Below, one piece after another: positions 5,974-24,416 of a DNA stretch of 64,000 nt (its first letter is position 1; each line of letters opens with the position of its first letter). Location: IMG/VR virus record IMGVR_UViG_3300012000_000001, positions 133,027 through 197,026 of that record; one strand, written 5' to 3'. The notes under the pieces were generated by a model, which saw nothing but the letters and a program-made list of their open reading frames with translations, was not told the origin of the DNA and made no database searches. A program made the translations under genes and the position numbers. Origin of the DNA: a virus.

Positions 5974-6504
5974 TTAAACCGAAAAAAAATACCATCGTTT
6001 GTATGTGTCTATATTTTCGGAAGTATTAATATGAGACAGATAGTCCTTTATATCACCCCATGAAGAAAAAATGGTTTGATGAGGAATGGTGCCGAACAAC
6101 CAGTCTGGGGCATTGATTTTGCCTTGCTCCATATGAATGATTATTGGTTTTTTTTGTCGATTAGCCCAAAAAATTTCTTCATATGTGCCGCAAGGATGAA
6201 TATCTAGATTTAGATTAACTATTAAAAAATCACTAATGTCTACGAGTCTTAAATCCACCCTACGAATAACTTTCATCATTTCTGATAATTCGTCATATCG
6301 TTCTTTTTGCTTTAGTTTAGTTTTAACAACATGAGAATCTCTATCTTCCATCCCTGTGTTAGTGGGTTTTGTTATAGGATTGAAAACTACAACACCCATT
6401 TCTTCCAAAAACGGCGTAATATTATCTCTCCAAGTCGCACCCCTGTCAGCAACCCTATCCATCGCACCGGCCAAATAAACTCTTTGATTTTGGAGTCTGT
6501 TCAT
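5974..6504 (-). CDS. Nucleoside 2-deoxyribosyltransferase / dNMP N-glycosidase-like protein (likely start MNRLQ at 6504)
   Basis: VYLAGAMD, VFNP, D..LVDISDFLIV, GTYEE motifs. Confidence 0.75.
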   Translation of the reverse strand: MNRLQNQRVYLAGAMDRVADRGATWRDNITPFLEEMGVVVFNPITKPTNTGMEDRDSHVVKTKLKQKERYDELSEMMKVIRRVDLRLVDISDFLIVNLNLDIHPCGTYEEIFWANRQKKPIIIHMEQGKINAPDWLFGTIPHQTIFSSWGDIKDYLSHINTSENIDTYKRWYFFSV

Positions 6505-6653
6505 AAGTTTAGTAAAATTAATTATCGGTAAATAAAAAAGTAAATAAATTTTTTGATGAATATAGCCTACTACAACTAGACCTATCACTAAGCCTATATT
6601 GACCATCGACCATACCAAATACAATTGCCAAAGCCAAGAACATTAATATAATT

Positions 6654-7388
6654 TCAACCATTTTTAAAATATCCAATATATTTTTGTCTCATACTATTTA
6701 CTTCATCAATCATTTGCTGTAGATGCTCTGGATTTGTTGACCTACCAGTAGGATTGTGATAGTAAAGGCCAACCGGGTGGTTGACCATCTTTATTCTAGC
6801 ACCTCCGACCGCACAACGCAACCACATATCTCCATCGGAAGCCGTCTTATAGTTTTCATCGAACCAACCAAATCTATCATGCAAATTCTTTTTCCATAGA
6901 GGCATACAGTGAGGACTATTGTTTAGGAATAGATTATTAAATGAGTGTGGCAAACAAGGATAGATCGAATCATATGTATTGTCTTCATATTTTTCATTAG
7001 CAATATTAGATATATAAGTGATTCCATATGCAATATCCAGTAAATCATCTCTTTCAAAAGCTTTAAGTAAAATTTCTGTACTGTGTATGTTTTTTCGATC
7101 ATCTATATTCCAGTTGCCAATTATAGGAGCTGTACATAATTGAATAGCTTTATTCCAACCAGCATACAGTCCAGGATCTGAATCTAGTCTATAATATTTG
7201 ATATTCTCATATCTTTTTACTAATGGTTCGATATATCTGTGTTCTGATTCTGGAGAATTACAATCTAAAAAAATAAATTCAATATTTTCAAAAATAGACT
7301 GTCTGAGAACATCGTATAGGTAGCCGTCAATAAATTTTTCTCCTTTATAGAGAGAACAAAATAATGAACACTTATAATTATCGGTCAT
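6654..7388 (-). CDS. Glycosyltransferase family 2
   Basis: SLYKGEKFI, LDCNSPE, GLYAGWN, NIDD, GWFDENYKTASDGDMWLR. Confidence 0.9.
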   Translation of the reverse strand: MTDNYKCSLFCSLYKGEKFIDGYLYDVLRQSIFENIEFIFLDCNSPESEHRYIEPLVKRYENIKYYRLDSDPGLYAGWNKAIQLCTAPIIGNWNIDDRKNIHSTEILLKAFERDDLLDIAYGITYISNIANEKYEDNTYDSIYPCLPHSFNNLFLNNSPHCMPLWKKNLHDRFGWFDENYKTASDGDMWLRCAVGGARIKMVNHPVGLYYHNPTGRSTNPEHLQQMIDEVNSMRQKYIGYFKNG

Positions 7389-8031
7389 GCTTTCTTCCTT
7401 GCCAGTGGGTGCCTATTAAACCACAATGTACAGCATATACATCTGGTAGATAAATTTTTTTGTTTGGTTTATTTTGCCAGTATTTTGATACAAACATCAT
7501 ATCATGCTGTGAAACATCAATATTCTCTGGCAAAGGATATATTTTGTTTTGTAATTCGGGCATTATGATATTCTTATGAAAGAATTGAAAATACCCAAAA
7601 AAACCAATATTTTCTACGGTATTATCCCCATTAGGATAGTCCGTATGGTTATTGTAAATTTTACGCGGACAAGAGACTATGTTGCTTTCGTTAATTAACT
7701 TATCATCTAACAAAGACTTTATACGATTAATAGGATCTGTAAAAATAATATCTGCATCTGTAAATAAAATCCAATCATCATCTTGAAATCTTTCTGGATG
7801 GGTTAATAAAAATTCATTGGTTGCTGCGGCTCTATTAAGAGGGTTGTTATTTTTAAAAAATGTATCTGTTTGGTATAAAAAGATATTATTGTTTAAACAA
7901 AATTTTTCTGTATCTTTATCTGAGGTTGATGATAAAATACTTAAATTATGAATAATATCTTTATTGTAGGAGTAGACAAATTCTAGGTAATCTACAAAAT
8001 TAATACAAGTAATTATTGTATGATATTTCAT
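7378..8031 (-). CDS. Putative GT-A glycosyltransferase
   Basis: DxD motif (FTDADIIF), GYFQFF; located in GT cluster. Confidence 0.65.
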   Translation of the reverse strand: MKYHTIITCINFVDYLEFVYSYNKDIIHNLSILSSTSDKDTEKFCLNNNIFLYQTDTFFKNNNPLNRAAATNEFLLTHPERFQDDDWILFTDADIIFTDPINRIKSLLDDKLINESNIVSCPRKIYNNHTDYPNGDNTVENIGFFGYFQFFHKNIIMPELQNKIYPLPENIDVSQHDMMFVSKYWQNKPNKKIYLPDVYAVHCGLIGTHWQGRKHDR

Positions 8032-8606
8032 TATTTCACCTCATAGATCCAACAATATTCTTGAGTTTTAATATTGTGAACACCTAGTATTTCGTTAACA
8101 GCAGTATTAACTCCAGGCCATCCGTGATTATAGTCATGTCCAGCCAATATTCCACCCTTCTTAACTTTAGGTAGCCATGCTAATATATCTTCATGAACAC
8201 AGCTATATTCGTGACAAGCATCTATAAAAACTATATCAACAGATTCGTTCTCAAATAATTTTGATGCTTCTATTGAGTTAGATTTTATATTACGAATATA
8301 TTGGCTTACGCTTGATGTATTATTAAGATAAGTAGAGTATAGCTCACTAATATTAGTGTTAAAATGCGGGGATGATTTATCAATGTTTTCAGCTGATCCT
8401 TCCCAAGTATCTATGGCATAGAATTCTATGGTTTTATTAGAATTAGCTATCTCTACTGCCATATATGCTGTACTTTGTCCTTTATAACTGCCTATTTCTA
8501 CTATTGATCCGCCATCATTTAGTCTATGAACAAAAGATGTGTATAGCATAGGAAACGTGAACCAGTTCTCTGGAAATTTATTGCGATCATAATAAAAATG
8601 ATTTAT
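8031..8606 (-). CDS. Class I SAM-dependent methyltransferase (Methyltransf_24-like); probable 5' extension to an ATA at 8606
   Basis: VEIGSYKGQS, IDTW, VFIDACHEY, LPKVKKGGILAGHDY; frame open upstream of the track ATG (8549). Confidence 0.85.
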   Translation of the reverse strand: MNHFYYDRNKFPENWFTFPMLYTSFVHRLNDGGSIVEIGSYKGQSTAYMAVEIANSNKTIEFYAIDTWEGSAENIDKSSPHFNTNISELYSTYLNNTSSVSQYIRNIKSNSIEASKLFENESVDIVFIDACHEYSCVHEDILAWLPKVKKGGILAGHDYNHGWPGVNTAVNEILGVHNIKTQEYCWIYEVK

Positions 8607-9376
8607 ATTATGGTCTCCTTAAATACGTTTGCGTCTAATTGATTAGAGTCAAAATTATGCCATAAAGAGTTATACAGTTCTGGCGTGAAGTGTATATTTT
8701 TAATATCACTCCAATGCTCTATAGTATAAATAGGTAATTGGTGTTTCTCTTTGAGATATCTAATATTATATGTGTTTTCTGCAATCGGTATTGCTTTTAA
8801 ATATAAGGATTCCCAAATTCTATGGGAGTCTATTCCGTTCCCGAGTGGACATACATTAAAATAAGTCTTAGCTAGTTTTGTTGTATATTCATGAAAAGAT
8901 ATATTGTTTTCAAAATATTGTGAATCTATATTTTGTAAACACAAACTTCGCTGTTTTAGATTTGTGTGTACATTAAAGTTAGCATATAATATAAACTCTT
9001 TATTATAATTAATATTGAAGGTGTTTTGTAATATATCTACATCACCGTGTGGCCATTCGATATTGGCTATACCTATTGGTATGGGAACTAATTTAGAATG
9101 AGCATAGTCAACGTTTTGAGCATACCACGTTTTTAGATAAGAATACTCTAAATAGTGTTTATGATTATGGTTGATACCATGATCACTATTGTGAGTAATT
9201 AAATTAAATTCATAATTAGGTAATTGATTACTATTAAAAAATAAATGAATATAGTCTGTTTTAACAAAAAATGTTGGACAATTATTACTTTTTACAGATT
9301 GGTTTTCTCGAAAGCCATGTTCATCTAAGACATAGTCACAGATCGATTTGAAAAAATGCCCAGTAATAAAATTCAT
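8603..9376 (-). CDS. Exostosin-like glycosyltransferase-related protein
   Basis: THNSD, WYAQN, PIPIGIAN, CPLGNGIDSHRIWESLYLKAIPI. Confidence 0.7.
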   Translation of the reverse strand: MNFITGHFFKSICDYVLDEHGFRENQSVKSNNCPTFFVKTDYIHLFFNSNQLPNYEFNLITHNSDHGINHNHKHYLEYSYLKTWYAQNVDYAHSKLVPIPIGIANIEWPHGDVDILQNTFNINYNKEFILYANFNVHTNLKQRSLCLQNIDSQYFENNISFHEYTTKLAKTYFNVCPLGNGIDSHRIWESLYLKAIPIAENTYNIRYLKEKHQLPIYTIEHWSDIKNIHFTPELYNSLWHNFDSNQLDANVFKETII

Positions 9377-10224
9377 AGAATCTCTGCAAAATTTTTGGAA
9401 TGTATGTGGGCATTGTAAATGGGTACAAATTGATTGTTATAATGAATAAATAATTTTTTATTAATTAAATGAATATTAAATTGTGAAAAATTCACTACAC
9501 AAGTTTCATTAATAAAGCCTTTTGTATTATTGGGCTGAGTAGAGTCTAGAATATCTATTCCATATAAATATTGGCCTATGGCAGCACCGTCGAATACCCC
9601 AGCAAAGTCCTGATGCATATTTCCAAAATTGATATTTAATTGAGGATCAACCAAATCGAATGTAATAATAGGTAGATTAGTAACAACATCTCTATGTTTC
9701 TGAAAATATAATGCCAAATTTCTCATATCGTCTAGATTGTTATTTGTATAAACAAAATTTGCTATTCTATTCGAAGCAATAGTGTTTCTATACCATATGA
9801 TAGAGGGCACGCATCTAAACGAATGATCCAATACTATTGCCGTATCATATTGAGATTTTTCTAATATATCGGTAGAATTTTGCAGGTTAGAGAGGGTGGC
9901 GATGTCGTTTTCTATATGCCAAAAAGAATACAGTTTTTCTTTTCTAGCATAGTTATCTATTAAAATAAATCTGGAAGAGGTTCTGGGAAAAAATCCATCT
10001 CTAAAAGATGTATCATAATTATTAATACTATATGTTGCATATCGTTCGTCTGTTATAGAATCTAAATCTATTAAAATTACGTCGGGACTGAGTATTAGAT
10101 GATGAAACTTTGTTTCTAAGATCAGATGAACACGAAAGCCTTCTCTGTGGGCTAGGGCTATACAGTCGTTTATATGGAAAGGAAACTGTGATCCACTATG
10201 AACCAAAATTAAATCTGTAGCCAT
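9373..10224 (-). CDS. Putative glycosyltransferase-like protein
   Basis: HIENDI (ExD), FDGAAIGQYLYG, GFINET, terminal HIHSK; GT cluster context. Confidence 0.6.
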   Translation of the reverse strand: MATDLILVHSGSQFPFHINDCIALAHREGFRVHLILETKFHHLILSPDVILIDLDSITDERYATYSINNYDTSFRDGFFPRTSSRFILIDNYARKEKLYSFWHIENDIATLSNLQNSTDILEKSQYDTAIVLDHSFRCVPSIIWYRNTIASNRIANFVYTNNNLDDMRNLALYFQKHRDVVTNLPIITFDLVDPQLNINFGNMHQDFAGVFDGAAIGQYLYGIDILDSTQPNNTKGFINETCVVNFSQFNIHLINKKLFIHYNNQFVPIYNAHIHSKNFAEIL

Positions 10225-11061
10225 TTAAAACGTATCCGTTATTCGGTTGTTGAGATATAGCTTTTGATGAAAGTATTTGATATCATTAAAAAAATACAGA
10301 TTACTAGAAGACAATAAAGAATTTAATCCTATATAACGAATACTGGCATCGCCCCATCGATACATATATATGCCACCAGAATTATCAATAAAATTATAAA
10401 AGTTTTGATAATCTTCTCCTCTAAACCAATCCATATCAAAAATTTCAAAATTAGTATAAAAAACTCTGTTTTTATGAAATTGTAGGTTTTGAGATTTAAA
10501 TATGTCGTCTTTATGAATATTTTTAAAATACTGTTCACTTAGTTCCCAGAGATTACAGACTACCCCAGGATGATCATGTTGAATATTAATATAACCATAT
10601 ATAGCTTTTTCATTGTTCATTCTATCAAAAACATTATATGGTATTTCGTCTAATATAAATGAATCTGTATCTAGTCTCCATATGTATCTATATTGCATAA
10701 GTCTTGATTGCTTAAAAATTTCTCCAGCAAAAAATCTACACATATGCCTATAGCCAAGAGAAAACCCTTGAGCCGCTGGGAAGTCTGGGTGGGGAAAATA
10801 CTCTGGGATTTGTGCAATTATTTCTGATGAATAATTTGGAGTACTAAAAGTAATTGGCTCAAAATATATAGAAATATTTTGTAAACTATTCTTTAATAAA
10901 GCTAATTCTGAAAAGGGAAAATCTGGCTCATAGAAACAAATAATATCACATGAATGTTTAAGATAATAATTATTTATTAATAATGGAATAGATTTTCTAA
11001 AATTAAGAATATCTTTGCTATTATTATTAAGCAAGTAGACTATTGCTGAGGGGCATCCCAT
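10225..11061 (-). CDS. GT15 (KRE2/MNT1-type) alpha-1,2-mannosyltransferase-like protein
   Basis: GYRHMCRFF, YRYIWRLD, FYTNFEI, FYNFIDNSGGIYMYRWGDA are hallmark GT15 motifs. Confidence 0.88.
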   Translation of the reverse strand: MGCPSAIVYLLNNNSKDILNFRKSIPLLINNYYLKHSCDIICFYEPDFPFSELALLKNSLQNISIYFEPITFSTPNYSSEIIAQIPEYFPHPDFPAAQGFSLGYRHMCRFFAGEIFKQSRLMQYRYIWRLDTDSFILDEIPYNVFDRMNNEKAIYGYINIQHDHPGVVCNLWELSEQYFKNIHKDDIFKSQNLQFHKNRVFYTNFEIFDMDWFRGEDYQNFYNFIDNSGGIYMYRWGDASIRYIGLNSLLSSSNLYFFNDIKYFHQKLYLNNRITDTF

Positions 11062-11062
11062 A

Positions 11063-11632
11063 TTATTCTCTATGTTTAGGTGGATAATTATATACTATGA
11101 CGTTGAACTGTCCCCATATGTCATTAATGAGATCAGACACGAATGGCCAATTACCACCAGCTAGTCCGCTACCAAATTTTGGACAATGTATTTCAATTTT
11201 CTCTGTTTTATTTACATAACCGGTTTTAGTAGCTATATACTGAGATAACGAATTCATAGACTTAACTAGAGCTAGATAGTTTAAAGGTCTCATGTTATTT
11301 TGACTCTTAATACCATTTTGGGCTATCATATTAACAAAAAATAACTTATGTCTAAATTTATTGTCTTCATATACTTTTAGTATTTGACTATAGCCCAAAT
11401 TATTTTTTAGAAAATGCTTACCAAGTAAATGATAGTCTTGCTTGACTGTTGGGTATTTTTCGGCGATTTGAGCTGCAAATCCTGCACCAAATAAGTCTAT
11501 ATTGTTACATACATGCGGCACAAAGACTGTACAGCCATTATTTCCGCAGGTTACGCGGTCTCTAATAACATCAAATAAGTTGTGATTTGAAGAAATATAA
11601 TTGGGTAAGGTTTTATTAATTTTGGTTGACAT
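11063..11632 (-). CDS. Macrodomain (ADP-ribose processing) protein
   Basis: HVCNNIDLFGAGFAAQIAEKYP and PKFGSGLAGGNW. Confidence 0.85.
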   Translation of the reverse strand: MSTKINKTLPNYISSNHNLFDVIRDRVTCGNNGCTVFVPHVCNNIDLFGAGFAAQIAEKYPTVKQDYHLLGKHFLKNNLGYSQILKVYEDNKFRHKLFFVNMIAQNGIKSQNNMRPLNYLALVKSMNSLSQYIATKTGYVNKTEKIEIHCPKFGSGLAGGNWPFVSDLINDIWGQFNVIVYNYPPKHRE

Positions 11633-12368: not shown

Positions 12369-12477
12369 CTCTTTTTTTAGCATGGTACGCAACTTGACCA
12401 ACCCTCCAGACTGGATTAATATTATGCAGGCCGGTGGACAATATCTATTATTCTTACTTACACCTCCTCTCTACCAC

Positions 12478-14139
12478 ATGCTTAAAACAACTATCGTTAC
12501 TGGAATATGGGATCTTGGTAGAGATTCTCTAGGTGAGGGCTGGAGTAGGTCTTTCGAACACTACAAAGATAAGTTCTCACAACTGCTACAATCTTTAAAA
12601 GATGTTCAGCTAATAGTATTTATAGACCCGAAGCATGAAGATATAGTCTGGAAATATAGATCTCCAACTAATACTGTTGTTTATCATCATTCAGCAGATA
12701 ATTTTGATAACAATTTTTTCCCATTCAGGCCACAAATAGAAAAAATAAGAACAAATGAGCAGTGGTTGTCTCAAGCTGGATGGTTAAAGGATAGTACGCA
12801 AGCTAAATTACCACTTTACAATCCGATGGTAATGAGTAAAATGTTCCTTCTGCATAATGCGAAAATATTCAATCCATTTAATAGTGAATATATGTATTGG
12901 CTAGATGGTGGAATATGCAATACTGTTCACCCTGGATATTTTAGCCATGACAACGTAATAGAAAAAATACAAAATTTAACTAAAAAGTTTCTATTTATAT
13001 GTTTCCCATATGAAACTAATAGCGAGATACATGGATTCGATATCTCTAAAATGAGAGAATATTCGAAAAATGATAATGTTAATCGGGTTGCTCGCGGTGG
13101 GTTTTTCGGTGGGCATATAGATTATATTTCTGAAGCCAATAATTTATACTACTCTCTTTTAGCGGATACCCTATCTAATGGACTAATGGGTACTGAAGAA
13201 AGTATTTTTACTATTATGACCTATTTACAACCAGAAGTATATCAATACGAAAGCATTAATGGTGATGGGTTAATTTCTACATTTTTTGAAAAAGTCAAAA
13301 ATCGTGAAACAACAATAGAGCAGGCTCAGCAAAGTAATCCTAGAAAAAAGCATACCAATAGCGATACTGTGCTCTACATTAATGCTTTTAATTCACCAGA
13401 ACAATTGCAAATGGTTTTGGATAGTTTTGAAAAATATGACAATTCATTTATTGCCCAAACTAAAAAGATATTAATTAACAATACAACAAATAATGAATTA
13501 TTTCCGCAATACGACGCTATATGCTCAAAATATTCATTTGCAGAACATATAAAAAAGGGAAATCTTGGAGTATGTAGGGCAAGACAATTTGCAGCCGAGC
13601 ATTTCGCCGATTTGGGTTCCAAATATATGATATTTTTTGAAGACGATATGTTGCTGGATTATTCTAGGGCTAAATGTGATTTTGGTTTCTGCAAACCAGC
13701 CCAAAATCTACTGCACTCTTTAATTCGTATAATGGATAATGAAGAATATGATTTTCTTAAATTTAGCTTTAGTGAGTTTTATGGACACAACGGAGAACAG
13801 TGGAGTTGGCATAATGTTCCATCTGATTTGAGGGTTAAATATTTTGGTGGAACGACTAAAAGACCTCTAACCAAGTTCACAGTGATAAAATCTTATAATG
13901 GTCTTCCATATGCTGAAGGAGAGATTTACTATTCTAACTGGCCCCATATTATAGATCAAGAAGGTAATCAAAAGCTGTTTTTAGACACTAAATGGGATAG
14001 ACCATTTGAACAAACTTGGATGAGTCACATATATACCCTAACAGTTAATGGTGTTGTTAAGCCCGCTATATTACTAGCTAGTCCAATTACACATAATAGA
14101 GTACATTTTTATGAAGCGACAGAACGTAAAGAAAACTAA
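12478..14139 (+). CDS. HtrL/YibB(WlaTC)-family glycosyltransferase fused to a GT-A domain (likely start MLKTT at 12478)
   Basis: YNPMVMSKMFLL, YWLDGG, VARGGFFGG, MGTEESIF; C-terminal NLGVCRARQ...FFEDD. Confidence 0.8.
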   Translation: MLKTTIVTGIWDLGRDSLGEGWSRSFEHYKDKFSQLLQSLKDVQLIVFIDPKHEDIVWKYRSPTNTVVYHHSADNFDNNFFPFRPQIEKIRTNEQWLSQAGWLKDSTQAKLPLYNPMVMSKMFLLHNAKIFNPFNSEYMYWLDGGICNTVHPGYFSHDNVIEKIQNLTKKFLFICFPYETNSEIHGFDISKMREYSKNDNVNRVARGGFFGGHIDYISEANNLYYSLLADTLSNGLMGTEESIFTIMTYLQPEVYQYESINGDGLISTFFEKVKNRETTIEQAQQSNPRKKHTNSDTVLYINAFNSPEQLQMVLDSFEKYDNSFIAQTKKILINNTTNNELFPQYDAICSKYSFAEHIKKGNLGVCRARQFAAEHFADLGSKYMIFFEDDMLLDYSRAKCDFGFCKPAQNLLHSLIRIMDNEEYDFLKFSFSEFYGHNGEQWSWHNVPSDLRVKYFGGTTKRPLTKFTVIKSYNGLPYAEGEIYYSNWPHIIDQEGNQKLFLDTKWDRPFEQTWMSHIYTLTVNGVVKPAILLASPITHNRVHFYEATERKEN

Positions 14140-15424
14140 GGTTATCAAACCGAAGTCCAAATTAAATAACCAAGAAACTATATTTGTGCAAATAGCGGCT
14201 TATAGAGACCCTCAACTATTACCGACTCTAAGGGATTTATTTAACAAAGCCAAATATCCACAAAATATTACCGTGGGCATATGCTGGCAACATTGTTCTT
14301 CCGATGAGTGGGACACACTTGAAGAGTTTCGTGATGATCCAAGAGTTAAAATTATTGATATAGATTATAAAACTAGCCAAGGAGTATGTTGGGCTAGAAA
14401 TTTAGTTCAGTCTTTATACAATAATGAAACATATACATTACAATTAGACAGCCATCATAGGTTTGTACAAAATTGGGATGCCACACTTATAGATATGCTA
14501 AAATATCTACAAAATAAGGGTCACCAAAAACCATTAATCACAGCCTATATACCAAGTTTTGATCCAGATAATGACCCAGCAAGCAGGGTACAAGAACCAT
14601 GGAAAATGAACTTTGATAGGTTCATACCAGAAGGAGCGGTTTTCTTTCTTCCTGCATCATTTGATGAGTGGGATGATAAAACGCAACCTCTACCAGCTAG
14701 ATTTTATAGTGCCCATTTTGCCTTTAGTGTTGGCGCTTTTTGTACAGAAGTTCCACATGATCCAGAATATTACTTTCATGGAGAGGAAATAAGCATAGCT
14801 GCTAGAGCATATACTCATGGATATGATCTTTTTCATCCTCATAAAGTGGTGTGTTGGCACGAATATACGCGAAAAGGTAGAACAAAACAATGGGATGATG
14901 ATAAGAAATGGTTTGAGAAAAATAATCTTTGTCATCTTAAAAATCGTAAATTGTTTGAAATGGATGGAGAAAAAAGAGATATAGATTTTGGAAAATATGG
15001 ATTCGGTTCAGTGAGAACTTTAAGAGACTATGAAAAATATAGCGGCTTATCCTTTGGAAAAAGAGCAATCCAAAAAAGAGTTCAGGAACATAAAGCTCCC
15101 CCAGATCCAGAAACCTCAAATTTATCAGACGAAGAATTTGATAAAAAATTAATGAAAATTTTCAAACATTGTATAGATATTCAGTACGGACAAGTTCCAG
15201 AAAATGATTATGATTTTTGGGCCGTTGCTTTTAAAGATCAAAACGGAGTAGATATTTATCGGCAAGATGCTGATAAAGATGAAATATTGCGAATGAAGAA
15301 TGATCCCGATGGTTATTGTAAAGTATGGAGAGAATTTCAAACAGAAATTAAGCCATCTAGCTGGATTGTTTGGCCACATAGTATTAGTAAAGGATGGGCT
15401 GATCCAATTATTGGTGGCCTATAA
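14111..15424 (+). CDS. GT60 polypeptide/hydroxyproline alpha-GlcNAc transferase-like protein
   Basis: IFVQIAAYRDP, VGICWQ, GVCWARNLVQSLY, LQLDSHHRF..WD, HGEE..IAARAYTHGYD. Confidence 0.88.
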   Translation: MKRQNVKKTKVIKPKSKLNNQETIFVQIAAYRDPQLLPTLRDLFNKAKYPQNITVGICWQHCSSDEWDTLEEFRDDPRVKIIDIDYKTSQGVCWARNLVQSLYNNETYTLQLDSHHRFVQNWDATLIDMLKYLQNKGHQKPLITAYIPSFDPDNDPASRVQEPWKMNFDRFIPEGAVFFLPASFDEWDDKTQPLPARFYSAHFAFSVGAFCTEVPHDPEYYFHGEEISIAARAYTHGYDLFHPHKVVCWHEYTRKGRTKQWDDDKKWFEKNNLCHLKNRKLFEMDGEKRDIDFGKYGFGSVRTLRDYEKYSGLSFGKRAIQKRVQEHKAPPDPETSNLSDEEFDKKLMKIFKHCIDIQYGQVPENDYDFWAVAFKDQNGVDIYRQDADKDEILRMKNDPDGYCKVWREFQTEIKPSSWIVWPHSISKGWADPIIGGL

Positions 15425-15430
15425 TAGACT

Positions 15431-16210
15431 ATGATACTATGGCATAACAAGCCTCTGTGCTCGGCTGGTTTTGTTATTAATTTAGCTTCAAGACCAGACA
15501 GAAAAGCATCAGCCATTAAGGAACTAGAACAATCTGGTATTAGTGGATTTGAATTCTATAATGCTACAACCTTATCGGATCCAGACTGGCAAGCGTATGG
15601 ATGTACTCAAAGTCATCTAGATTTGTTTAAAATACAAATAGAAAATAATATTGATTATTTATTAATATTAGAAGATGATATACATACATCTTATACTTAT
15701 AGCACGCTTAATAAGATTACAAAAATAGATAAACAAATTAAGTATGCTCATAATTGTATTGATAGCTTTCATCATCTGAAACCCGATTTGCTATGGCTTG
15801 GCTCCAGAGTGGAACAAGATGTAGATTATTATGATGACTATATATCTTTTTCTAATAAAACTTTAACAGCCCATGCGTATATCAGTTCTTTGTCGTTGGC
15901 AAAGTTCTGTGTTGAAAACTTTAAATATAACGAGCATGGTCACCTGTCTTATAGATATCCTATAGACTTTTTCTTATCACAACTTAAAATTAAAACAGAT
16001 CATCAAATTATCAACAATATAAATAATAAAGCATTTGTCACCAATAATCTAGTTACTTCAGTTAGCAACTGTTTAATTTTTAATCAAAAACCCGGCTATT
16101 CTAATATTATTCATAAAGATATTGATTATGGGATATGGATAGCTGGTTGCCATGAACACTATTGTTTTAATCCGTTAAAAAATAAGATTAATTACCATGA
16201 ATACATTTGA
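15431..16210 (+). CDS. GT25-like glycosyltransferase
   Basis: FVINLASRPDRK, GCTQSH, LILEDD, TAHAYI. Confidence 0.8.
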   Translation: MILWHNKPLCSAGFVINLASRPDRKASAIKELEQSGISGFEFYNATTLSDPDWQAYGCTQSHLDLFKIQIENNIDYLLILEDDIHTSYTYSTLNKITKIDKQIKYAHNCIDSFHHLKPDLLWLGSRVEQDVDYYDDYISFSNKTLTAHAYISSLSLAKFCVENFKYNEHGHLSYRYPIDFFLSQLKIKTDHQIINNINNKAFVTNNLVTSVSNCLIFNQKPGYSNIIHKDIDYGIWIAGCHEHYCFNPLKNKINYHEYI

Positions 16211-16892
16211 TATTATTAAACATTGGGATGATAATTTAGTACAGTCTCATATTATGTCTGAATTAAATTATCTTATAAATTACTTTAAAAAGAGAAGCAC
16301 GACTAACATCAGATATTTGGATATTGGAGCCAATTGTGGAAGATATTGGAATGTTTTATCTCAGCATTTTACCGTTGATTATGCTATAATGGTCGAACCC
16401 TCAACAGAACTCCACAAGTATTTGTTGCATAAATTTAGAGATACTAATTTTTCTATATATAATTTTGTACTATCTGATCACGATAGTATGGTTAGTCTAG
16501 CAGATATTGATTTTAGTTTTTATACACAATTAGACAATAATATTAATTTAGGATTATCTAAATCTTACTTATCAGATAATAATAATAAAACACAATTATC
16601 AGCTGAAAATTTCTTTAATGACTATATATATTTTAATAATATTTATAAATTAGATCTCATTAAAATAGACACAGAAAATCGTGACTACCACATATTGAAA
16701 TCAATGACAAATGTACTCTCTAAATTAGAATCTAAACCTATAATTTGTTTTGAAAACAATTATCATAACGACATGACACAAGACGAGGCTCAGGCTATAT
16801 TAAACAATTTTACTAGTATCAATTTATATGAGCCAATTAATATTGCAGATATCAACTGGAGTAGTGTATTTTTATGCCCAATTCAAGCTTAA
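16197..16892 (+). CDS. FkbM-family methyltransferase
   Basis: YLDIGANCG, VEP, LIKIDTE. Confidence 0.85.
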   Translation: MNTFDIIKHWDDNLVQSHIMSELNYLINYFKKRSTTNIRYLDIGANCGRYWNVLSQHFTVDYAIMVEPSTELHKYLLHKFRDTNFSIYNFVLSDHDSMVSLADIDFSFYTQLDNNINLGLSKSYLSDNNNKTQLSAENFFNDYIYFNNIYKLDLIKIDTENRDYHILKSMTNVLSKLESKPIICFENNYHNDMTQDEAQAILNNFTSINLYEPINIADINWSSVFLCPIQA

Positions 16893-17578
16893 TATTACTT
16901 AATAGTATTTTATACAATTTTAAAATTAATAAAAAATATTGGACTTATGATAACTTAACTGGAGAAGACTATGATACTAGACGATCTAAGCCAGCTCCAT
17001 ACATAAGAACAGCAATAAATATAGCTAAATTATTAAATATGACAACAGTAGTCGAAATAGGCTCAACTAGATTTGCTGTAACTCAACCATGCGTTGATTA
17101 TTTTGATGATACTAATTCAGACCCATATATTTCGCCACCTTGTTGCTGCGATGGTCATGCTACTTATTTTTGGGCTAGGGCAGGCTTTATAACTCATACG
17201 GTGGACATAGACACCAACTGTTTAAATGGTGTGCAGTGGTCATACGGAAATTTAAACCAACCACAACCATCAAATCTAAAATTACATATTCCAGAGGACG
17301 GTATATCGTTTTTGAATAATTTTTCAGATAAAATAGATGTATTATATCTAGACGGATGGGATAAAGGAACTATGAATTATGCAGAAAAGCATTTGGAGGC
17401 TTTCCAAGCAGCTAAAAATAAATTATCTAATATTCATTTAATTCTTATAGATGATACAGATTATCTTACTAAAGAGGGGGGGAAAGACCAGCTGTTATCT
17501 CCATTTTTAATTGAACAAAATTATTATTTATTGTTTAATGGCAGACAAACTCTTTTTATCAATAGGTTTCCAACATGA
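16874..17578 (+). CDS. SAM-dependent methyltransferase-like protein
   Basis: VVEIGSTR, TVDID, IDVLYLDGWD, ILIDD. Confidence 0.7.
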   Translation: MPNSSLILLNSILYNFKINKKYWTYDNLTGEDYDTRRSKPAPYIRTAINIAKLLNMTTVVEIGSTRFAVTQPCVDYFDDTNSDPYISPPCCCDGHATYFWARAGFITHTVDIDTNCLNGVQWSYGNLNQPQPSNLKLHIPEDGISFLNNFSDKIDVLYLDGWDKGTMNYAEKHLEAFQAAKNKLSNIHLILIDDTDYLTKEGGKDQLLSPFLIEQNYYLLFNGRQTLFINRFPT

Positions 17579-18345
17579 ATATTATTGTAACTTTAACAAC
17601 CGTACCCAATAGACTACTAGAGCATCATGGTTCTTGTTCAGCCAGATTAGCCATAACCACATTATTGGAACAGTCTTATCAGTCGTATGAGGTCCACTTT
17701 AATATTCCACTATATTATCGTAATAACCCAATTATTTTACCCGAATGGATCGATGAGTATGCTAAAAAATATAATCATCTAAAAGTTTTTAGAACCGATG
17801 ACTATGGTCCCATTACTAAAATATTCCCAACCCTAGAGAGGGTTACTGATCTAGAAACCATGATTATTGTTGCCGACGATGATTTGTATTATATGGACGG
17901 TATGATATCCTCCCATGTAGAAGCCAGATCTAGATATCCTGAAGCCGCTTTGGGTTTTGCTGGATTATCCTCAATAGACGGATCGTGCCATTTCTGTACA
18001 ACTATACAAAAGGACACAAGAGTTAAAATTTTAGAAGGATACAAAACAGTATCGTATTTAAGAAAATTTTTCGACACAGAAGAACTTAAGAGTCAGTTTA
18101 TGGACAAGTCTTGGAGAGATGACGAGACATTATCTGCTTACATGGGATATAAGAATATTCCAAAAATAGTTCTTGCTTACTCAGGAGATACGGACTATAA
18201 TCCTAGAGTAGAGTCTTTTCCTGTGATTGGTCATGTTCCTACACAACAGGGTGGTTGCCATGTATTTAGAAATTGTGATGAAGCACAAAAGAGATCAGAT
18301 GATAATATACAAAAATTTTATAAGCTTGGTTATCTAGAAAGATAA
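17575..18345 (+). CDS. GT-A glycosyltransferase
   Basis: IVTLTTVPNRL, DYGPITK, ADDDLYY, DDETLS. Confidence 0.75.
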   Translation: MNIIVTLTTVPNRLLEHHGSCSARLAITTLLEQSYQSYEVHFNIPLYYRNNPIILPEWIDEYAKKYNHLKVFRTDDYGPITKIFPTLERVTDLETMIIVADDDLYYMDGMISSHVEARSRYPEAALGFAGLSSIDGSCHFCTTIQKDTRVKILEGYKTVSYLRKFFDTEELKSQFMDKSWRDDETLSAYMGYKNIPKIVLAYSGDTDYNPRVESFPVIGHVPTQQGGCHVFRNCDEAQKRSDDNIQKFYKLGYLER

Positions 18346-18349
18346 TATC

Positions 18350-18733
18350 ATGAAGTATGTAGCCGTAATACTAGTATTGGGATTATTTGTTTGTAAAAAT
18401 TCTGCTAATGCCCAGCAGTGGCCTAATCCAGAAAATGCCAGACTAACTAATACCATGACAAATTTTATGAACCAGTTTGGCGGAGGAGGACTCCCGATTC
18501 CTGTTCCAGTGCCTGTGGACTATAATTATTACTCTGACTATCAAAATGGATACCAACAGCATCTTCAAAATAGCGTGACACAAGTTGAAGTATATTTTAG
18601 ACGCAGACAATTTAATATGTATTATCGACAATTAGAAGAGTTGCAGAAACAAGAGATCAAAGATCTAAAAAGATCTAAGCAACTAACTATTCCGGAACTT
18701 AATCGTATTTTTAATAGAGAGTCATCATTTTAG
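18350..18733 (+). CDS. Secreted hypothetical protein
   Basis: Hydrophobic signal ending ANA-Q; YFRRRQFNMYYR motif reminiscent of planctomycete secreted proteins. Confidence 0.65.
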   Translation: MKYVAVILVLGLFVCKNSANAQQWPNPENARLTNTMTNFMNQFGGGGLPIPVPVPVDYNYYSDYQNGYQQHLQNSVTQVEVYFRRRQFNMYYRQLEELQKQEIKDLKRSKQLTIPELNRIFNRESSF

Positions 18734-19662
18734 AATACGGGATTGATAATACCATAGCCCTCAAATTTTCTAATTCCTTTATATCTAGAATCTTTTAGAG
18801 ATATAGTATTTTGCTTGAAAGCATCAATATAGTCTTCAAATGTATTTAGTTTATATTTTTTGTGTTTAAGATTATAACTTAGTAATAATGCAGCACAACC
18901 AACAGCAAACGGATTGCTCATACTTGTGCCGCTCATGCTTGCATATCTATTTCCTGGCACACATCCGATAATATCATGACCCGGAGCCAGAAAGTCCAGA
19001 TCTTCACCACTGCAAGTAAAAGATGTGCGATTTAAATTTTCGTCTATAGCCCCAATAGATATAGTATTTTTATATTTAGCAGGGTACATTATCTCAGAGT
19101 TTTCTCCACTGTTCCCAGCCGCACAAAAAACTATACAACCTTTACTATTAGCATAGCTAATTGCGTTTTCTATAGACTTGGCTGGATTTGGAGAACCTAA
19201 ACTCATAGTAATAAAATTTACTCCATCATAGTCAGCCGCCCAATAAATTGCATCAGCTACGGCACTCATAGATCCAGATCCATCATCTCCCAGAGCTTTT
19301 ACTGGTACGATTTTTGCAGCGGGTGCCACACCAACCATTCCGAATCCATTATCTGATGCTGCTATTGTGGATGATACGTGAGTACCGTGACCCGCACCGT
19401 CTATTGGGTCTCTTCCACTATTAACAAAGTTTTTACCGGGTAATAAATTATCTACCAAGTCTTTGTGCTTAAGGTCGCAGCCAGTGTCTATTACTGCCAC
19501 GATAACCCCATCACCCTTACTTTTACTCCATAATTTTGGAATATTAAATTTCTTTAATTCCCATCCTTCTGATTGAGAATCGTCAACAGATAAACCATAT
19601 ACATCTTCTTTAATATATGGTAATAAGCTAATATTGTCTTTATTAAATCTTTTTCTTATCAT
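18730..19662 (-). CDS. Subtilisin-family (S8) serine protease
   Basis: Catalytic triad motifs VIDTG, HGTH, SGTSMS; oxyanion AAGN. Confidence 0.93.
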   Translation of the reverse strand: MIRKRFNKDNISLLPYIKEDVYGLSVDDSQSEGWELKKFNIPKLWSKSKGDGVIVAVIDTGCDLKHKDLVDNLLPGKNFVNSGRDPIDGAGHGTHVSSTIAASDNGFGMVGVAPAAKIVPVKALGDDGSGSMSAVADAIYWAADYDGVNFITMSLGSPNPAKSIENAISYANSKGCIVFCAAGNSGENSEIMYPAKYKNTISIGAIDENLNRTSFTCSGEDLDFLAPGHDIIGCVPGNRYASMSGTSMSNPFAVGCAALLLSYNLKHKKYKLNTFEDYIDAFKQNTISLKDSRYKGIRKFEGYGIINPVF

Positions 19663-20414
19663 TTTGATTCCTTGATAGTAGAAATGGTGTTTGTAATCCA
19701 TTCAACATGATCACTAATTCTGGTATGGCCACTAAATGTTCCATAGGCCGATTTTATCATCCCCTTGTCATGTATAACACAAGAGTTTATGCCTGCTAGT
19801 TTATTTCCGATAAATAAGCCGCCCCCGCTATCACCACTAGCAATACAATATTCTAATTCTGTTCTGTTTGTTCTAGAAGGGGAACACACCAACAATCCCC
19901 TATCTATAGAGTCTATAGTATTAGAACCGGCTCTTAGTTTATCGTCCAGTTTATTAACGCCCACCAAAAAATTTCCAGTAGCGCCATATCCAGCTATGGA
20001 ACATATTTTTCCTACCTCGTTTTTATTGGTATATAATTCAGGATACCATTCCAAACCTATATCGTCTTCTAAAATGCATATAGCAATATCATAATATCCA
20101 AATTGGTCCATTTTATAATTAGGATGGACTATGATTTTTGATACATTAATTGTTTTGCTATTGATAGTCGCTCTACAGGTTCCCACATCTTGCACAATAT
20201 GCGCGGCTGTTATTATAACATTAGATTGGTGTGCTATTCCAGAACCAAAATAAGGCTTGGTATCAGGAGTGGTACCATGCACTTTAGCAATATATACAAA
20301 TTTTGATCCGTACTCTATATGCTTAGAGTCTGGGGTATTGGGGTCTATCGTGCCCGAAAAACCTACGACACAAGCCAACGACAACGCTATAAATATAACT
20401 ACTTTTTGTATCAT
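19659..20414 (-). CDS. Trypsin-like (S1) serine protease with signal peptide
   Basis: ITAAH, YDIAI, GDSGGG. Confidence 0.92.
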   Translation of the reverse strand: MIQKVVIFIALSLACVVGFSGTIDPNTPDSKHIEYGSKFVYIAKVHGTTPDTKPYFGSGIAHQSNVIITAAHIVQDVGTCRATINSKTINVSKIIVHPNYKMDQFGYYDIAICILEDDIGLEWYPELYTNKNEVGKICSIAGYGATGNFLVGVNKLDDKLRAGSNTIDSIDRGLLVCSPSRTNRTELEYCIASGDSGGGLFIGNKLAGINSCVIHDKGMIKSAYGTFSGHTRISDHVEWITNTISTIKESK

Positions 20415-20718
20415 TTTGAACTTTTAAGTTATATGGTCTATTTCGTACCTTAGTATAATACACCCTTGCATCATCAACAACTGTTGTATTCCAACTAGTA
20501 TAGTCCATCAAGTGACCAAATACTAAATGACACTTGGTACACAAAGTAATTAAATTTGCGGGATCTAATTCTCTTTCTGGATTTATATGAAACGGCTCTA
20601 TATGATGAACCTCTAGTTTTTGTGACGTTCCGCACGCAGCGCACAGTGGTTGTTGTTCAAGATGTTTTTTTCTACACGATGACCATTGAGATGATCTATC
20701 AGATAATATTTGCCACAT
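20323..20718 (-). CDS. Small HNH endonuclease
   Basis: CAACG...EVHHIEP...NLITLCTKCH. Confidence 0.85.
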   Translation of the reverse strand: MWQILSDRSSQWSSCRKKHLEQQPLCAACGTSQKLEVHHIEPFHINPERELDPANLITLCTKCHLVFGHLMDYTSWNTTVVDDARVYYTKVRNRPYNLKVQNDTKSSYIYSVVVGLCRRFFGHDRPQYPRL

Positions 20719-20724
20719 ATGACC

Positions 20725-20868
20725 TTAACCACCCCCTCCGCCGCCTCCGCTCAGTATGGTTCTGCTTGGTGTTATAGTAACAGTTGGAGTAACTGTTGGT
20801 GTTGGGGTCACACTAGTAAGGGGTTTTTGAGTAGGTACTGGACAGCAATTAATATTAATTATAGTCAT
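20725..20868 (-). CDS. 47-aa Thr/Pro-rich peptide with CC motif and poly-Gly tail
   Basis: Manual translation MTIININCCPVPTQKPLTSVTPTPTVTPTVTITPSRTILSGGGGGGG*; below ORF-track cut-off. Confidence 0.6.
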   Translation of the reverse strand: MTIININCCPVPTQKPLTSVTPTPTVTPTVTITPSRTILSGGGGGGG

Positions 20869-20892
20869 TATAATACCTTTTATTTATAAATT

Positions 20893-22389
20893 TCAAATGA
20901 TTGAAGGGATAGGTGTTGGCGTGGGAGTTGGTGTAGGTGTTGGTGATGGCGAAATTGCAGTAGCATTATTATTACATAATTTTACAACCACATTATCTAT
21001 AGCCGCCCCAACAACGCCACAATCCGTACAGGTGCTTTCAAATTTTACAAGTGTAATCGTACTATCTGCTGTAAAAACAAGAGTTTTAGTAACCCAGCCC
21101 ATAGACTCATATGTTCCAAATGTAGTAGACGATGGATCGAAAGAATAATCTTTTGTAATTGTTGACGAACCAATAATCGATAATCTGCATGTTTTTACGA
21201 TATTTTTTTCTGTAATATTATGTGCAGCCAAATTAAAAGTTACTGAATATGTGCTTCCAATAATTGTATTAATACTTTGTTGAATATATCCTGCACTTAA
21301 AGCATTCAAATCTATCCATTTATTAACAGGCTGAGTATCATCATATTGTGAAAGTGAATGAATATCCACATTAGATATAGTCCAATAATCTAATGCCCCA
21401 ACTGGGGATGTTCCAACATCTGGAGCAGATCCTGGCGTTCCAGACTCAAAATCTCCATTTAAAACCAAATTGGTTGAACCCTCATCATCAATACAAACAC
21501 AAACATTAAAATGTCCAGTATTATCTTGAGGCTGCGGATCATAAAAGAATAAATATAGTTTGCCTGTTTCGTTTGCTATAGCACTATAAGATGATCCAAC
21601 AAAAAATACCGTACCAGATTCACCAATACGGCCAAGCAAACTAACATAAGGAAATCCAGAAAGTGGATCATTGCCTGTTCCTGGTATTCCATCAGGACCA
21701 TATGCTCCAGGATGATCTGACCATCCTACATTAATATTGCCATCAGCCGATATTGTTAATAGAGATCCAGCATTTACTTGTATATTTGTATTTAGTGCAT
21801 TGGCTGAACTATTATGAGTAGGTCCTAAAACTTTGGGAGAAGGACATATAAAACCACCAACGACAATATCGTTAGGCATACAAAGGGCTAACACTATATT
21901 ATTAGCTGGATCTTTGATCGTAACTCTTCCGATGCCGTTATGGCAATCTGATAAATTACATTCTAGTCGTAATGTAGTAGACTGACTGCTAAGAATATGT
22001 TCATTAATTGTAAATACTGTTTCTCTATACCTCCCATCAGGAAAATTATTTAAATTTGCTTCGCCTATCAAATTGTTGTCAATATAAAAATTAAAAATAG
22101 CCCTATTACATGAGTGACCAGCAGAACAATTGACCGGATCATATGATACAATTGCGGTGTATCCATACAGATCAACACCTTCCCCTAAACAAATATCTGG
22201 CACTGGCGTAGGAGGTGGTGGGGGTGGGGGCGGTAATGGAATATCTATGATATTAGATTTGTCACAACAGCCGCTGCCTCCAATACGCAACTGAATACTA
22301 GAAGCCCTAGATCCTCCTGGAGACAATATACTACCAGGAACATATAATTTAATTATTTTTTTGTCGCAATTAATTAGGGGAGTTGTCAT
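20893..22389 (-). CDS. Cys/Pro-rich putative surface protein with LecA/PA-IL-like and DUF642-like carbohydrate-binding domains
   Basis: [36 protein letters not shown]; [24 protein letters not shown]. Confidence 0.65.
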
Positions 22390-24416
22390 GGTATTATATC
22401 TCCAAAACACGTTGAATTAATAGAATATGAATATCCCGGATTAACTGTGTCGCAATCTATAGCAGATACTGGTAGTGGGTTCCATGAATTACTATTATTT
22501 AATGAATATTCAATAGAACAACAACATTCGCTATTCTTCTCTACCTGCAATTCTACAATTATACCATTATTAATAAGAGCGCCGTCAATAAATCCATCAC
22601 AAATTATAATTTCATTACACGACTCCCAGCAGTACTCCTCCGTAAAACTAGACCAAGCACTATCTAATGCAGACTCTTGGCAATAGTTTAAAGAAATAGT
22701 TTTGATTCTAAATTTAACATAGCCGTTGGAACATTCTTGAGAGGCTGCTATATTGTCTGGTCTAGGTCCCAATAGACTTGTTAAAGAAAAATTGTATGAA
22801 TTAATAAGAGTATTGAATATACAAACCTGATCTAATAATTGTCCATTATGGTCTACCGCTTGAATCATATAGCCTGTAGCGCAGCTTTGATTATTTGGAG
22901 AAGATAATCCTGACCATGACCAATTCAAAGAGACTAATGTATCATTTGCGCCAGCCACCCCATCATCAAAACACGCACAACCAGATTCTACAATAGTAGG
23001 AGGAGATAACTGACAATTCACAGACGGTGTTGGTGTTGGTGTGCTTGAAGGTGACGGTGTGCAACAATTACAATTATTGGTATCTCCATCAAATACCCAT
23101 ACTGGAGGCACATCACACTGACAAGCAGTAGATGTTCCTGAAATATTTAGACCATTAACACAAGATATATTGGCGGTAGCTGTCCATTTATTAGCGCATG
23201 ATGATGATCCCGTATATGGTACGCTGGGATCACATGTTACTGCCATAAAATATGTGTCGCCACATGATAATGTTCCACTACTAGTCCAATAATTAGGCAT
23301 GACTTTAGTGAAGAATAAATCTAATGTTATCGTTCTACTCATATTACTACAGTTTAATACAAATGTAGTCAAACCATTCCAATCACAACATGTTCTGGGC
23401 GAAATAGATGGTGTTGGAGTACTAGTGGCAGTTGGTGTTGGTTTAGGAGTTTGGGTTTTAGTTACTGTGGGTGTTGGACTAGATGTTGGTGTTGGAGTAC
23501 AGCAACTACAATTAGAAAAATCTGCAATAAAACTCCAAATAGGAGGAGCATTACACTGACATACTTCTCTAACCCCTGTAATTATTAAGCCAGTAGCGCA
23601 TGACATTGTGAGTGAAAAAGACCACTTATTGATACACGAGTTTGCTCCAGCGTATCTAATATCTGGATTACAAGTTATTGTAGACGTAAAAGTGTCTCCA
23701 CAATTTAATGTCCCGTTTGCAGTCCATGTAGATGGTCCCGTCTTTGTATACTGCACTGGTAATATTAAATTATTACAGGTTTCTCCAAACTGAATAAATG
23801 TATTACCATCCCATTCACAACAAGTTTGTCTCGACGGGGTAGGTGTTATAGTTGCTGTTGGCGTTGCTGTTGGAGTTATTGTATTTGTCGGAGTGGTTGT
23901 TGGTGTGGATGTTTTGGTTGGGGTGATAGTATTTGTTGGAGTAACAGTAATAGTTGGTGTTACTGTTGGTGTTTTTGTTTGTGTAGGAGTTACAGTTGGT
24001 GTTTGAGTCTTAGTAGCAGTTATGCTTGGTGTTGGAGTTGGTGTTCTTGTACTAGTAACTGTCATTGTTGGAGTGACAGTAGGAGTACTAGTTATGGTCG
24101 GTGTGACAGTAGGAGTTCTAGTTACTGTTGGGGTTTGTGTTTTTGTAGGTGTTCTAGTTGGTGTTCTTGTAGGGGTTTTTGTAGGGGTTTTAGTTATAGT
24201 CGGAGTTATTGATGGAGTGATTGTAGGAGTAGGTGTAGGTGTTTTTTTAGGAGTTTTAGTAGGTGTAGGCGTTTTGGTTAAAGTTCTAGTTGGTGTAGGA
24301 GTGACCAAAGAACGATCAATTATAATACATGTTTCATCCGACCTAATTTTAGGCGGTTTAGGCGTAGGACTTGGTGTTCTTGTGGGTGTTGGAGATGGAG
24401 GTATTATCTTTGACAT
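22386..24416 (-). CDS. Mucin-like Thr/Pro-rich protein with two Cys-rich repeats
   Basis: About 150-aa (TP/TxT)n tract; two ~110-aa repeats TCC.W.G.T...CGDT...TC.P...C.NKW...C..G...CQC..PP.W...C.CC. Confidence 0.85.

Follow-up and report, generated by a model that had tools for sequence, protein, structure and literature searches.

We analysed the final 64 kb (the window; 64,000 nucleotides, positions 133,027 to 197,026) of the 197,026-bp IMG/VR virus record IMGVR_UViG_3300012000_000001, and we focused on its gene for a glycosyltransferase of family GT60 and on proteins that carry threonine-proline (TP) repeats. Our results suggested that this phage probably sugar-coats its own proteins. We propose that it encodes a cytoplasmic, mucin-type protein O-glycosylation pathway for its own TP-repeat stalks, a reading to which we assign a probability of about 0.55 and which is well supported by comparison. 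The evidence that carries it is the fold and conserved active site of the GT60 enzyme, its fixed pairing with a second transferase, and its co-distribution with TP repeats across phage genomes.

The record was judged to be a phage because it contains terminase, portal, RIIA and DNA ligase genes, and CheckV estimated its completeness at 100%. The terminase and portal genes come first in a long series of plus-strand genes for very large proteins, as part of a tailed-phage genome, and the window itself holds the RIIA and DNA ligase genes together with RuvB and actin-like (Volactin) genes. A megablast search with 13 kb of the sequence against cultured phages gave no DNA match.

The GT60 enzyme and its structural relatives

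The 437-amino-acid (aa) open reading frame (ORF) at the centre of this study matched the GlcNAc/GT60 family PF11397 with an E-value of 7.8e-77 (259.5 bits against a cut-off of 21). A six-frame search of the 197-kb genome agreed, and it showed that the gene is present in a single copy. A preliminary description, made by a model from the sequence letters and a list of their open reading frames, without database searches, had named a GT60 enzyme here and had suggested a hidden Markov model search as a check; that search bore out the assignment.

Searches of the PDB by sequence, whether with the GT60 protein, with a profile of 39 GT60 sequences, or with the 585-aa protein of the adjacent gene, gave no meaningful match, and for this reason we turned to a fold search. 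The AlphaFold2 (AF2) model of GT60, built from 39 homologues, had a pLDDT of 93. All of its approximately 50 best Foldseek matches in the PDB were polypeptide N-acetylgalactosamine (GalNAc)-transferases. An exhaustive alignment against 48,161 chains placed mouse mGalNAc-T1 first (Z 21.5 over 280 residues, root mean square deviation 3.4) and Toxoplasma TgGalNAc-T3 second (Z 20.3), whereas generic GT-A enzymes scored no higher than Z 17.5, which is 3–4 Z units below the GalNAc-transferases. The DxH motif (D113/H115) and H250 were invariant in the 39 sequences, down to 35% identity. Kinship to the polypeptide GalNAc-transferases, given in the preliminary description as established, was thus confirmed by the fold matches and by the literature. 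GT60 enzymes are polypeptide alpha-N-acetylglucosamine (GlcNAc)-transferases by which mucin-type glycosylation begins in protists; they are akin to family GT27 but do not have its ricin-like domain, and the family is currently seen as one of protists, with an ancestry that reaches back to the last eukaryotic common ancestor (PMC8724618).

We scanned window positions 1–33 kb for transmembrane segments and signal peptides by hydropathy. The GT60 protein had no transmembrane segment and is soluble. Its residues 316–437 (window 15056–15424) form a confidently modelled, beta-rich domain of about 120 aa at the C-terminus, beyond the Pfam model, that is conserved as far as Xanthomonas phage XacN1, with an alignment that spans residues 23–433. 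Pfam at a permissive threshold returned nothing usable for this domain, and no ricin-type lectin domain was recognised. By analogy, the domain may have a targeting role comparable to that of the lectin domain of GalNAc-transferases.

Homologues of the enzyme were abundant. Clustering of the homologous proteins at 90% identity gave more than 7,500 clusters, mostly 73–89% identical to the window GT60, and clustering at 50% identity gave 4,927; in IMG/VR, at least 564 stretches carried a homologue. Three IMG/VR phage records (G025, of 98 kb, G030 and G042) had between two and four GT60 paralogues, frequently in tandem. In two large, distant environmental proteins (P0122, 2,461 aa; P0123, 1,641 aa), as many as four GT60 domains stood in tandem and were fused to 2-oxoglutarate-Fe(II) oxygenase domains of the prolyl-hydroxylase type, and P0122 had a peroxiredoxin domain in addition. 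Fusions of this kind tie the family to protein substrates.

Co-distribution of GT60 and Thr-Pro repeats

We searched genomes for a DNA pattern coding for TPTxTPT and used the reversed pattern as a control. The window's genome contained 28 occurrences, against 0–1 for the control. The same was true of every GT60-positive record tested (30/30: 15 records tested at the outset, 13 further large records, and the phages Xoo-sp13 and CM1), with 3–135 matches each against 0–1 in the control, although the count treats as independent records that are phylogenetically related. Co-occurrence of GT60 and TP-rich genes across related phages had been put forward as a check in the preliminary description, and at the level of whole genomes the result was strongly positive.

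The association was also seen in the opposite direction. Among 37 IMG/VR contigs of at least 43 kb that were chosen solely because they encode TPTVTPTxTPT, 20 contained a GT60 gene, even though most of the contigs are fragments. When contigs of at least 43 kb were instead picked by an arbitrary 16-mer, GT60 was found in 1/25 and TP repeats in 1/25, both in the same 310-kb record (Fisher p = 2.6e-5). The positive complete records include groups whose terminases show no similarity, or only ~22–23%, to that of the window phage, and the positive set extends to a 60-kb phage with 47% GC.

Cultured jumbo phages, ranked by the similarity of their DNA polymerases to that of XacN1, gave a matching picture. 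The GT60-positive phages XacN1, Xoo-sp13, CM1 and RAS14 had 22–51 TPTxTPT matches each. RsoM2USA, XbC2, XaC1, Phosso, CBB, Vibrio 2.275.O and RaK2 had no GT60 and no TPTxTPT match (7/7). Host genus does not explain the repeats, because XbC2 and XaC1 infect Xanthomonas and yet have none.

ORF334 of XacN1 is a GT60 homologue, with 46–49% identity that holds from end to end, the C-terminal domain included. Schiff staining of XacN1 virions revealed at least two glycoprotein bands, and the phage was reported to encode only two glycosyltransferases; the authors named neither the transferase families, nor the acceptors, nor a link to repeats (PMC5852040). We found that one of the two is ORF334. The XacN1 proteins with TP linkers include ORF369, 370, 372 and 232–237; some are large and encoded immediately after the tail-sheath genes, and others form a series of paralogues of 400–750 aa. 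XacN1 thus resembles the window phage in its GT60 enzyme and its TPTxTPT-rich genome, and it differs in having two glycosyltransferases only and in its gene neighbourhood. In XacN1 and in RAS14, DNA polymerase and RNase H genes adjoin the GT60 gene, and a gene for a 765-aa carbamoyltransferase comes after it (locus L003; XacN1 219791–223508), an arrangement unlike that of the window.

Candidate acceptor proteins

The preliminary description had pointed to three Thr/Pro-rich proteins with Cys-Cys motifs as substrates. These ORFs are indeed present, 5–9 kb from GT60 and on the opposite strand, and all three have TPT(V/P)TPT repeats and CC motifs (Table 1). In the largest, of 676 aa, residues 36–200 contain 77 Thr and 34 Pro in 165 residues. 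The two Cys-rich modules of this protein, each of ~110 aa, bracketed by CC and linked by TP, are 44% identical to one another (E = 3e-36). It matched no Pfam family, its C-terminal half gave nothing usable at a permissive Pfam threshold, and it had no signal peptide; an Atlas search with residues 195–676 gave only weak beta-sandwich leads. The 498-aa protein is a lectin-type protein, in which an N-terminal MTxxxINC motif is followed by a poly-Pro/TP linker, by PA-IL-like and DUF642 carbohydrate-binding domains, and by a C-terminal (TP)n tail. The 47-aa ORF was interpreted as a truncated remnant because two relatives (L005 and L007) carry full-length, lectin-headed versions of 179–196 aa whose N-terminus is 93–94% identical.

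A nearly identical N-terminus, M-T/S-I-I-x-I-N-C-C-P-V, precedes the TP linker at window positions 20845–20868 and 22366–22389 and in L005 (17258–17848) and L007 (16692–17231). This common motif of the small lectin-headed proteins may be a shared attachment peptide. No signal peptide or transmembrane segment was found in the TP proteins within the scanned part of the window.

Three further TP-linker proteins are encoded in the distant structural block (genome 19608–21347, 70869–75410 and 75856–77295), for a total of six TP ORFs. One of the three is flanked by proteins with tail-fibre or head-decoration matches, and the other two lie among giant proteins after a gene with minor-tail-protein matches. 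The substrate set first proposed is therefore likely to be too narrow: the three neighbouring proteins stay in it, and these three would join them. The same block, outside the window, contains a single ORF of 5,990 aa (genome 40435–58407, plus strand) and, further on, ORFs of 2,130 and 2,646 aa.

A divergent group of related loci (L047, L069–L084) has large, TP-rich, multi-domain proteins immediately upstream of GT60 on the same strand. In L069 and L081 these have a lectin/concanavalin A-like N-terminal domain and repeats that resemble, by eye, the P-domains of proprotein convertases; L073 and L084 have TP-linked proteins with small Cys-knot-like repeats. Judged by their sequences, the relatives appear to mount a broad set of binding heads on TP stalks.

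A conserved transferase pair within variable islands

We compared 80 related loci, all of which kept GT60 (80/80). The two-domain transferase gene was present as well in 72/80, whereas each other transferase of the window was found in 0–16/80. We concluded that GT60 and the two-domain transferase are a fixed core and that the two flanking islands turn over. The 585-aa gene overlaps the start of GT60 by 29 nt. Its AF2 model (pLDDT 82) has two GT-A domains: the N-terminal half is HtrL_YibB, with a fold like that of the GT6/GT8 retaining enzymes (Z 12.9), and the C-terminal half has an EDD motif and a fold like those of B4GALNT1, POMGnT1 and GnT-I (Z 14–15; individual values 15.1 and 14.2).

Around GT60 there are at least ten soluble glycosyl- and methyltransferases (Table 1). 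About 13 had been counted in the preliminary description, and this was too many. Nine are supported by Pfam, namely GT4, GT2, a weak GT2_4, Methyltransf_24, the RXYLT1_C-like protein, GT15, the HtrL_YibB two-domain enzyme, GT25 and FkbM; the range also contains two weak look-alikes, two ORFs with no usable match, and two nucleotide-metabolism genes. Of the unmatched ORFs, 9373–10224 had no Pfam match even at a permissive threshold, and 11063–11632 gave only Abhydrolase_5 at a chance-level E-value of 0.05 in the permissive search. The GT15-family protein had 233 short environmental homologues and was absent from the related GT60 loci (0/80).

None of the glycosyl- and methyltransferases of the cluster had a transmembrane segment, and within the scanned 1–33 kb the cluster contained no polytopic membrane protein, flippase, polymerase, ATP-binding cassette (ABC) transporter or polyprenyl-phosphate transferase. 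Because the transferases are soluble, membrane components are lacking, and the TP proteins have no signal peptide, the product of the cluster should be a cytoplasmic one, built on an acceptor that is soluble or at the inner face.

Table 1. Transferase genes and Thr-Pro-rich genes of the window (window coordinates; loci are those among the 80 compared)
Feature	Position	Strand	Evidence and remarks
GT4 (GT-B) glycosyltransferase, far edge of island	3599–4666	−	PF13692 and PF00534, E ~1e-15
GT2-type glycosyltransferase, clear match	6654–7388	−	PF00535, E 7.6e-12
GT2-type glycosyltransferase (GT2_4), weak match	7378–8031	−	PF13704, E 5e-4
Class I S-adenosylmethionine (SAM) methyltransferase (Methyltransf_24)	8031–8549	−	PF13578, E 1.3e-22
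RXYLT1 C-terminal-domain-like transferase	8603–9376	−	PF24785, E 6.5e-7
GT15-family (Kre2/Mnt1-type alpha-1,2-mannosyltransferase) protein, no membrane anchor	10225–11061	−	PF01793, E 2.9e-35
Two-domain glycosyltransferase, conserved GT60 partner	12382–14139	+	585 aa; PF09612 (HtrL_YibB), E 2e-14
GT60, candidate initiating polypeptide N-acetylhexosamine (HexNAc)-transferase	14111–15424	+	437 aa; PF11397, AF2 model, fold match
GT25-family glycosyltransferase, variable island downstream of GT60	15431–16210	+	PF01755, E 1.3e-12; 15/80 loci, ~25% identity
FkbM-family methyltransferase, candidate sugar O-methyltransferase	16197–16892	+	PF05050, E 1e-6; RfbT-like, E 4e-4; 7/80 loci
Weakly methyltransferase-fold-like protein	16874–17578	+	Spermine_synth, E 0.22 only; 7/80 loci
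Probable GT-A glycosyltransferase, weak match	17575–18345	+	Glycos_transf_2, E 0.046; ADDD motif in translation; 14/80 loci
Truncated remnant, 47 aa	20725–20868	−	N-terminal MTIININCC and TP linker, then Gly run; lectin head missing
Lectin-type protein, 498/505 aa	20893–22389 (or 22410)	−	DUF642, E 7e-12; PA-IL, E 3e-4; homologues in 7/80 loci
Candidate acceptor, 676 aa	22386–24416	−	Mucin-like TP domain, two Cys-rich modules, Cys-rich C-terminal domain; homologues in 5/80 loci

Proposed pathway

In the pathway that we propose, the soluble GT60 would transfer a first sugar from the host's UDP-sugar pool to the hydroxyls of Pro-flanked Thr (or Ser). By analogy with characterised GT60 enzymes, this sugar would most likely be alpha-GlcNAc, with UDP-GlcNAc as the donor. 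GT60 would act on the TPTxTPT linkers of the three neighbouring TP proteins and of the three in the structural block, before the virion is assembled. The 585-aa transferase, presumably coupled to GT60 in translation, would then add the next one or two sugars, and the flanking transferases and methyltransferases would complete the glycan. Because these finishing enzymes differ from phage to phage, the glycan is probably strain-variable.

The TP proteins themselves appear to be modular fibres, with a short N-terminal anchor, a TP stalk, and heads that are lectin-like, formylglycine-generating-enzyme (FGE)-sulfatase-like or made of repeat domains. On the virion, the modified stalks would bear lectin-like or other binding heads, and a dense cover of glycans would make the stalks stiffer and more resistant to proteases. 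In its broadest form, the proposal is that GT60-initiated mucin-type O-glycosylation extends beyond eukaryotes and is widespread in large environmental phages and in jumbo phages of Xanthomonadaceae, where the conserved pair and fast-changing finishing enzymes would place strain-variable, partly methylated glycans on the TP stalks of virion fibres in the bacterial cytoplasm. We hold this general form more tentatively, and rate its chances as a little short of even.

Alternative explanations

Several observations weigh against the proposal that GT60 modifies TP stalks. The case for this phage, as for every phage GT60, is comparative throughout, and the virion location of the TP proteins comes only from gene position and weak PHROG matches. 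Proximity within about 10 kb, an argument of the preliminary description, did not hold up. Homologues of the neighbouring TP genes were found in just 5–7/80 loci, and many close relatives have no TP genes at this place, the actin-like gene being the next one after the HNH endonuclease gene. Any TP ORF lay within 10 kb of GT60 in 33/80 loci (~41%), as predicted by genome-wide density, for which our chance estimate takes six TP ORFs per 197 kb. Local adjacency was therefore discarded as evidence, and the real signal is the co-distribution at genome level. The records behind that signal are not phylogenetically independent, however, and habitat is a possible confounder, in that both traits may mark large environmental phages. 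In addition, TP-rich phages without GT60 exist (G019, 76 matches; G013, 11 matches), and hence TP linkers do not need GT60. Two other apparent exceptions, G015 and G020, were set aside as uninformative: they belong to the window phage's own clade (terminase 75–81% identical), and their contigs end before the expected position of GT60. The relation is thus one-way, with GT60 occurring only with TP repeats and TP repeats occurring also without GT60; this is the pattern expected of an enzyme and its substrate, but it is no proof.

The TP-rich phages that lack GT60 also speak for a different target, in which GT60 would modify some other protein, either of the capsid or tail, as in mycobacteriophages, or of the host, and would co-occur with TP repeats through shared ancestry or habitat. 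The same can be said of the XacN1 glycoprotein bands, which were not assigned to particular proteins (PMC5852040), and of the far better conservation of GT60 and its partner (65–89% identity) than of the TP proteins. The relatives fused to prolyl hydroxylases, moreover, point to hydroxyproline targets elsewhere in the family. We nonetheless consider such a target unlikely, because the association recurs across groups with unrelated terminases and in cultured phages of Xanthomonadaceae, and because GT60-negative phages of the same host have no TP repeats. Pro-flanked Thr is, in addition, the classic acceptor context of GT27 and GT60 enzymes. As for hydroxyproline, which had been named beside Thr as an acceptor of GT60 enzymes, the route is improbable here because the 197-kb genome has no match to prolyl hydroxylase (PF13640).

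Turning to the islands, their HtrL_YibB, GT25, GT2, GT4 and RfbT-like methyltransferase families are typical of lipopolysaccharide (LPS) and polysaccharide loci, and their content turns over as in an O-antigen locus. The first feature counts against protein stalks as the target, and both would suit an island that remodels an envelope glycan of the host (LPS, O-antigen, capsule or a lipid-linked intermediate), for example as a block to superinfection, with the TP repeats as plain linkers and GT60 acting on a sugar or lipid acceptor. We regard this as quite unlikely. The cluster encodes none of the membrane components that we looked for, its enzymes are all soluble, and the nearest structures to GT60 are polypeptide transferases; remodelling of the envelope would also leave unexplained why TP repeats occur in 30/30 GT60-positive phages when set against the random and related controls. 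The preliminary description had envisaged a glycan coat either on virion fibres or on the surface of the infected cell. Of these the second is the less likely half, because neither signal peptides nor transmembrane segments were found in the TP proteins and the transferases are all soluble.

It is highly improbable that the enzymes glycosylate phage DNA as an anti-restriction device, like the alpha- and beta-glucosyltransferases of T4. The XacN1 GT60 gene does lie beside DNA polymerase, RNase H and carbamoyltransferase genes, nucleotide-metabolism genes sit inside the window's island, and the C-terminal domain of the 585-aa protein has a very weak match (E 0.03) to TET-associated glycosyltransferases. 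Yet the genome has no PF00303 protein (the thymidylate-synthase-type dCMP/dUMP hydroxymethylase), which the same search detected in 10/14 control genomes, and the fold of GT60 is nearest to polypeptide transferases. A dozen transferases and methyltransferases, furthermore, far exceeds the known sugar modifications of DNA.

Comparison with known glycosylation systems

Glycosylation of TP stalks by a phage GT60 would have close counterparts in protists. Dictyostelium GntB acts on PTVT repeats of the PsA type. GntB and the Trypanosoma cruzi pp-alphaGlcNAcT share with the phage enzyme the Pfam and CAZy family, a GT-A fold near that of GT27, the DxH site, and candidate acceptors of the TPTVT type. 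They are, however, type II membrane proteins of the Golgi that act on secreted proteins, whereas the phage enzyme has no anchor, has a conserved C-terminal domain of ~120 aa beyond the Pfam model, and would meet its targets, which have no signal peptides, in the bacterial cytoplasm. In the cytoplasmic Skp1 pathway of Dictyostelium and Toxoplasma, the prolyl hydroxylase PhyA is followed by Gnt1 (GT60) and then by the bifunctional PgtA. This succession of a soluble cytoplasmic GT60 and a two-domain transferase parallels the phage pair of GT60 and the 585-aa protein. The Skp1 pathway differs in its dependence on a prolyl hydroxylase, which the phage does not encode, and in its target, a single hydroxyproline of a single protein, where the phage would have long, Thr-rich repeats as candidate acceptors. 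The metazoan GT27 polypeptide GalNAc-transferases, which prefer Thr next to Pro, are the best structural match and share the DxH and His site; they belong to another CAZy family, with 11–16% sequence identity to the phage enzyme.

Among viruses, chloroviruses and mimiviruses encode glycosylation of their virions, and Freeman et al. (2023) reportedly described glycosylation of mycobacteriophage capsids and tails. These systems resemble the proposed one in that soluble glycosyltransferases of the virus itself glycosylate structural proteins without an endoplasmic reticulum or Golgi, and they differ in their transferase families and acceptor sites. In the literature that we searched, none of them was tied to GT60 or to TP-repeat stalks. 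Virion glycosylation in giant viruses and mycobacteriophages and mucin-type initiation by GT60 in protists are already known. A phage GT60 for TP-repeat stalks is not described in the literature searched, where our queries on phage GT60, PF11397 and TP-linker glycosylation returned nothing beyond the remark on XacN1.

If the proposal is correct, mucin-type O-glycosylation extends to bacterial viruses and to the bacterial cytoplasm, and phages have a coat of glycans that can be likened to the glycosylated fibrils of giant viruses. The origin of the GT60 and GT27 polypeptide transferases would be reopened as a question, the TP linkers that are common in the fibre proteins of large phages would gain a testable function, and the virion glycoproteins of XacN1 would be explained. 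The variable transferase islands would then serve to diversify the glycan coat of the virion, which bears on host recognition, on resistance to proteases and grazing, and on the immune visibility of therapeutic phages. A direct test can be made in culture with XacN1, Xoo-sp13, RAS14 and CM1.

Additional observations

Within the upstream island, genes of the inosine monophosphate dehydrogenase (IMPDH)/GMP-reductase family and for a protein like nucleoside 2-deoxyribosyltransferase occupy window 4666–6624 on the minus strand and were kept in 14–16/80 relatives. The second of these ORFs (5974–6624) has a predicted N-terminal transmembrane segment at an upstream TTG start. The motif GGTGTAW was considered as a promoter shared by the transferase and TP genes and was rejected, since its 16 matches in the window compare with 13.1 expected and show no enrichment.

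Downstream of GT60, window 18730–20718 (minus strand) encodes two proteases, a subtilase (S8) and a trypsin-like enzyme, of which only the second has a signal peptide, as well as the HNH endonuclease. This block adjoins the transferase island in 39–48/80 loci, and a gene for a secreted protein of 127 aa (18350–18733, plus strand) is convergent with it. Phage protease genes thus adjoin glycosylation genes whose product would putatively shield against proteases.

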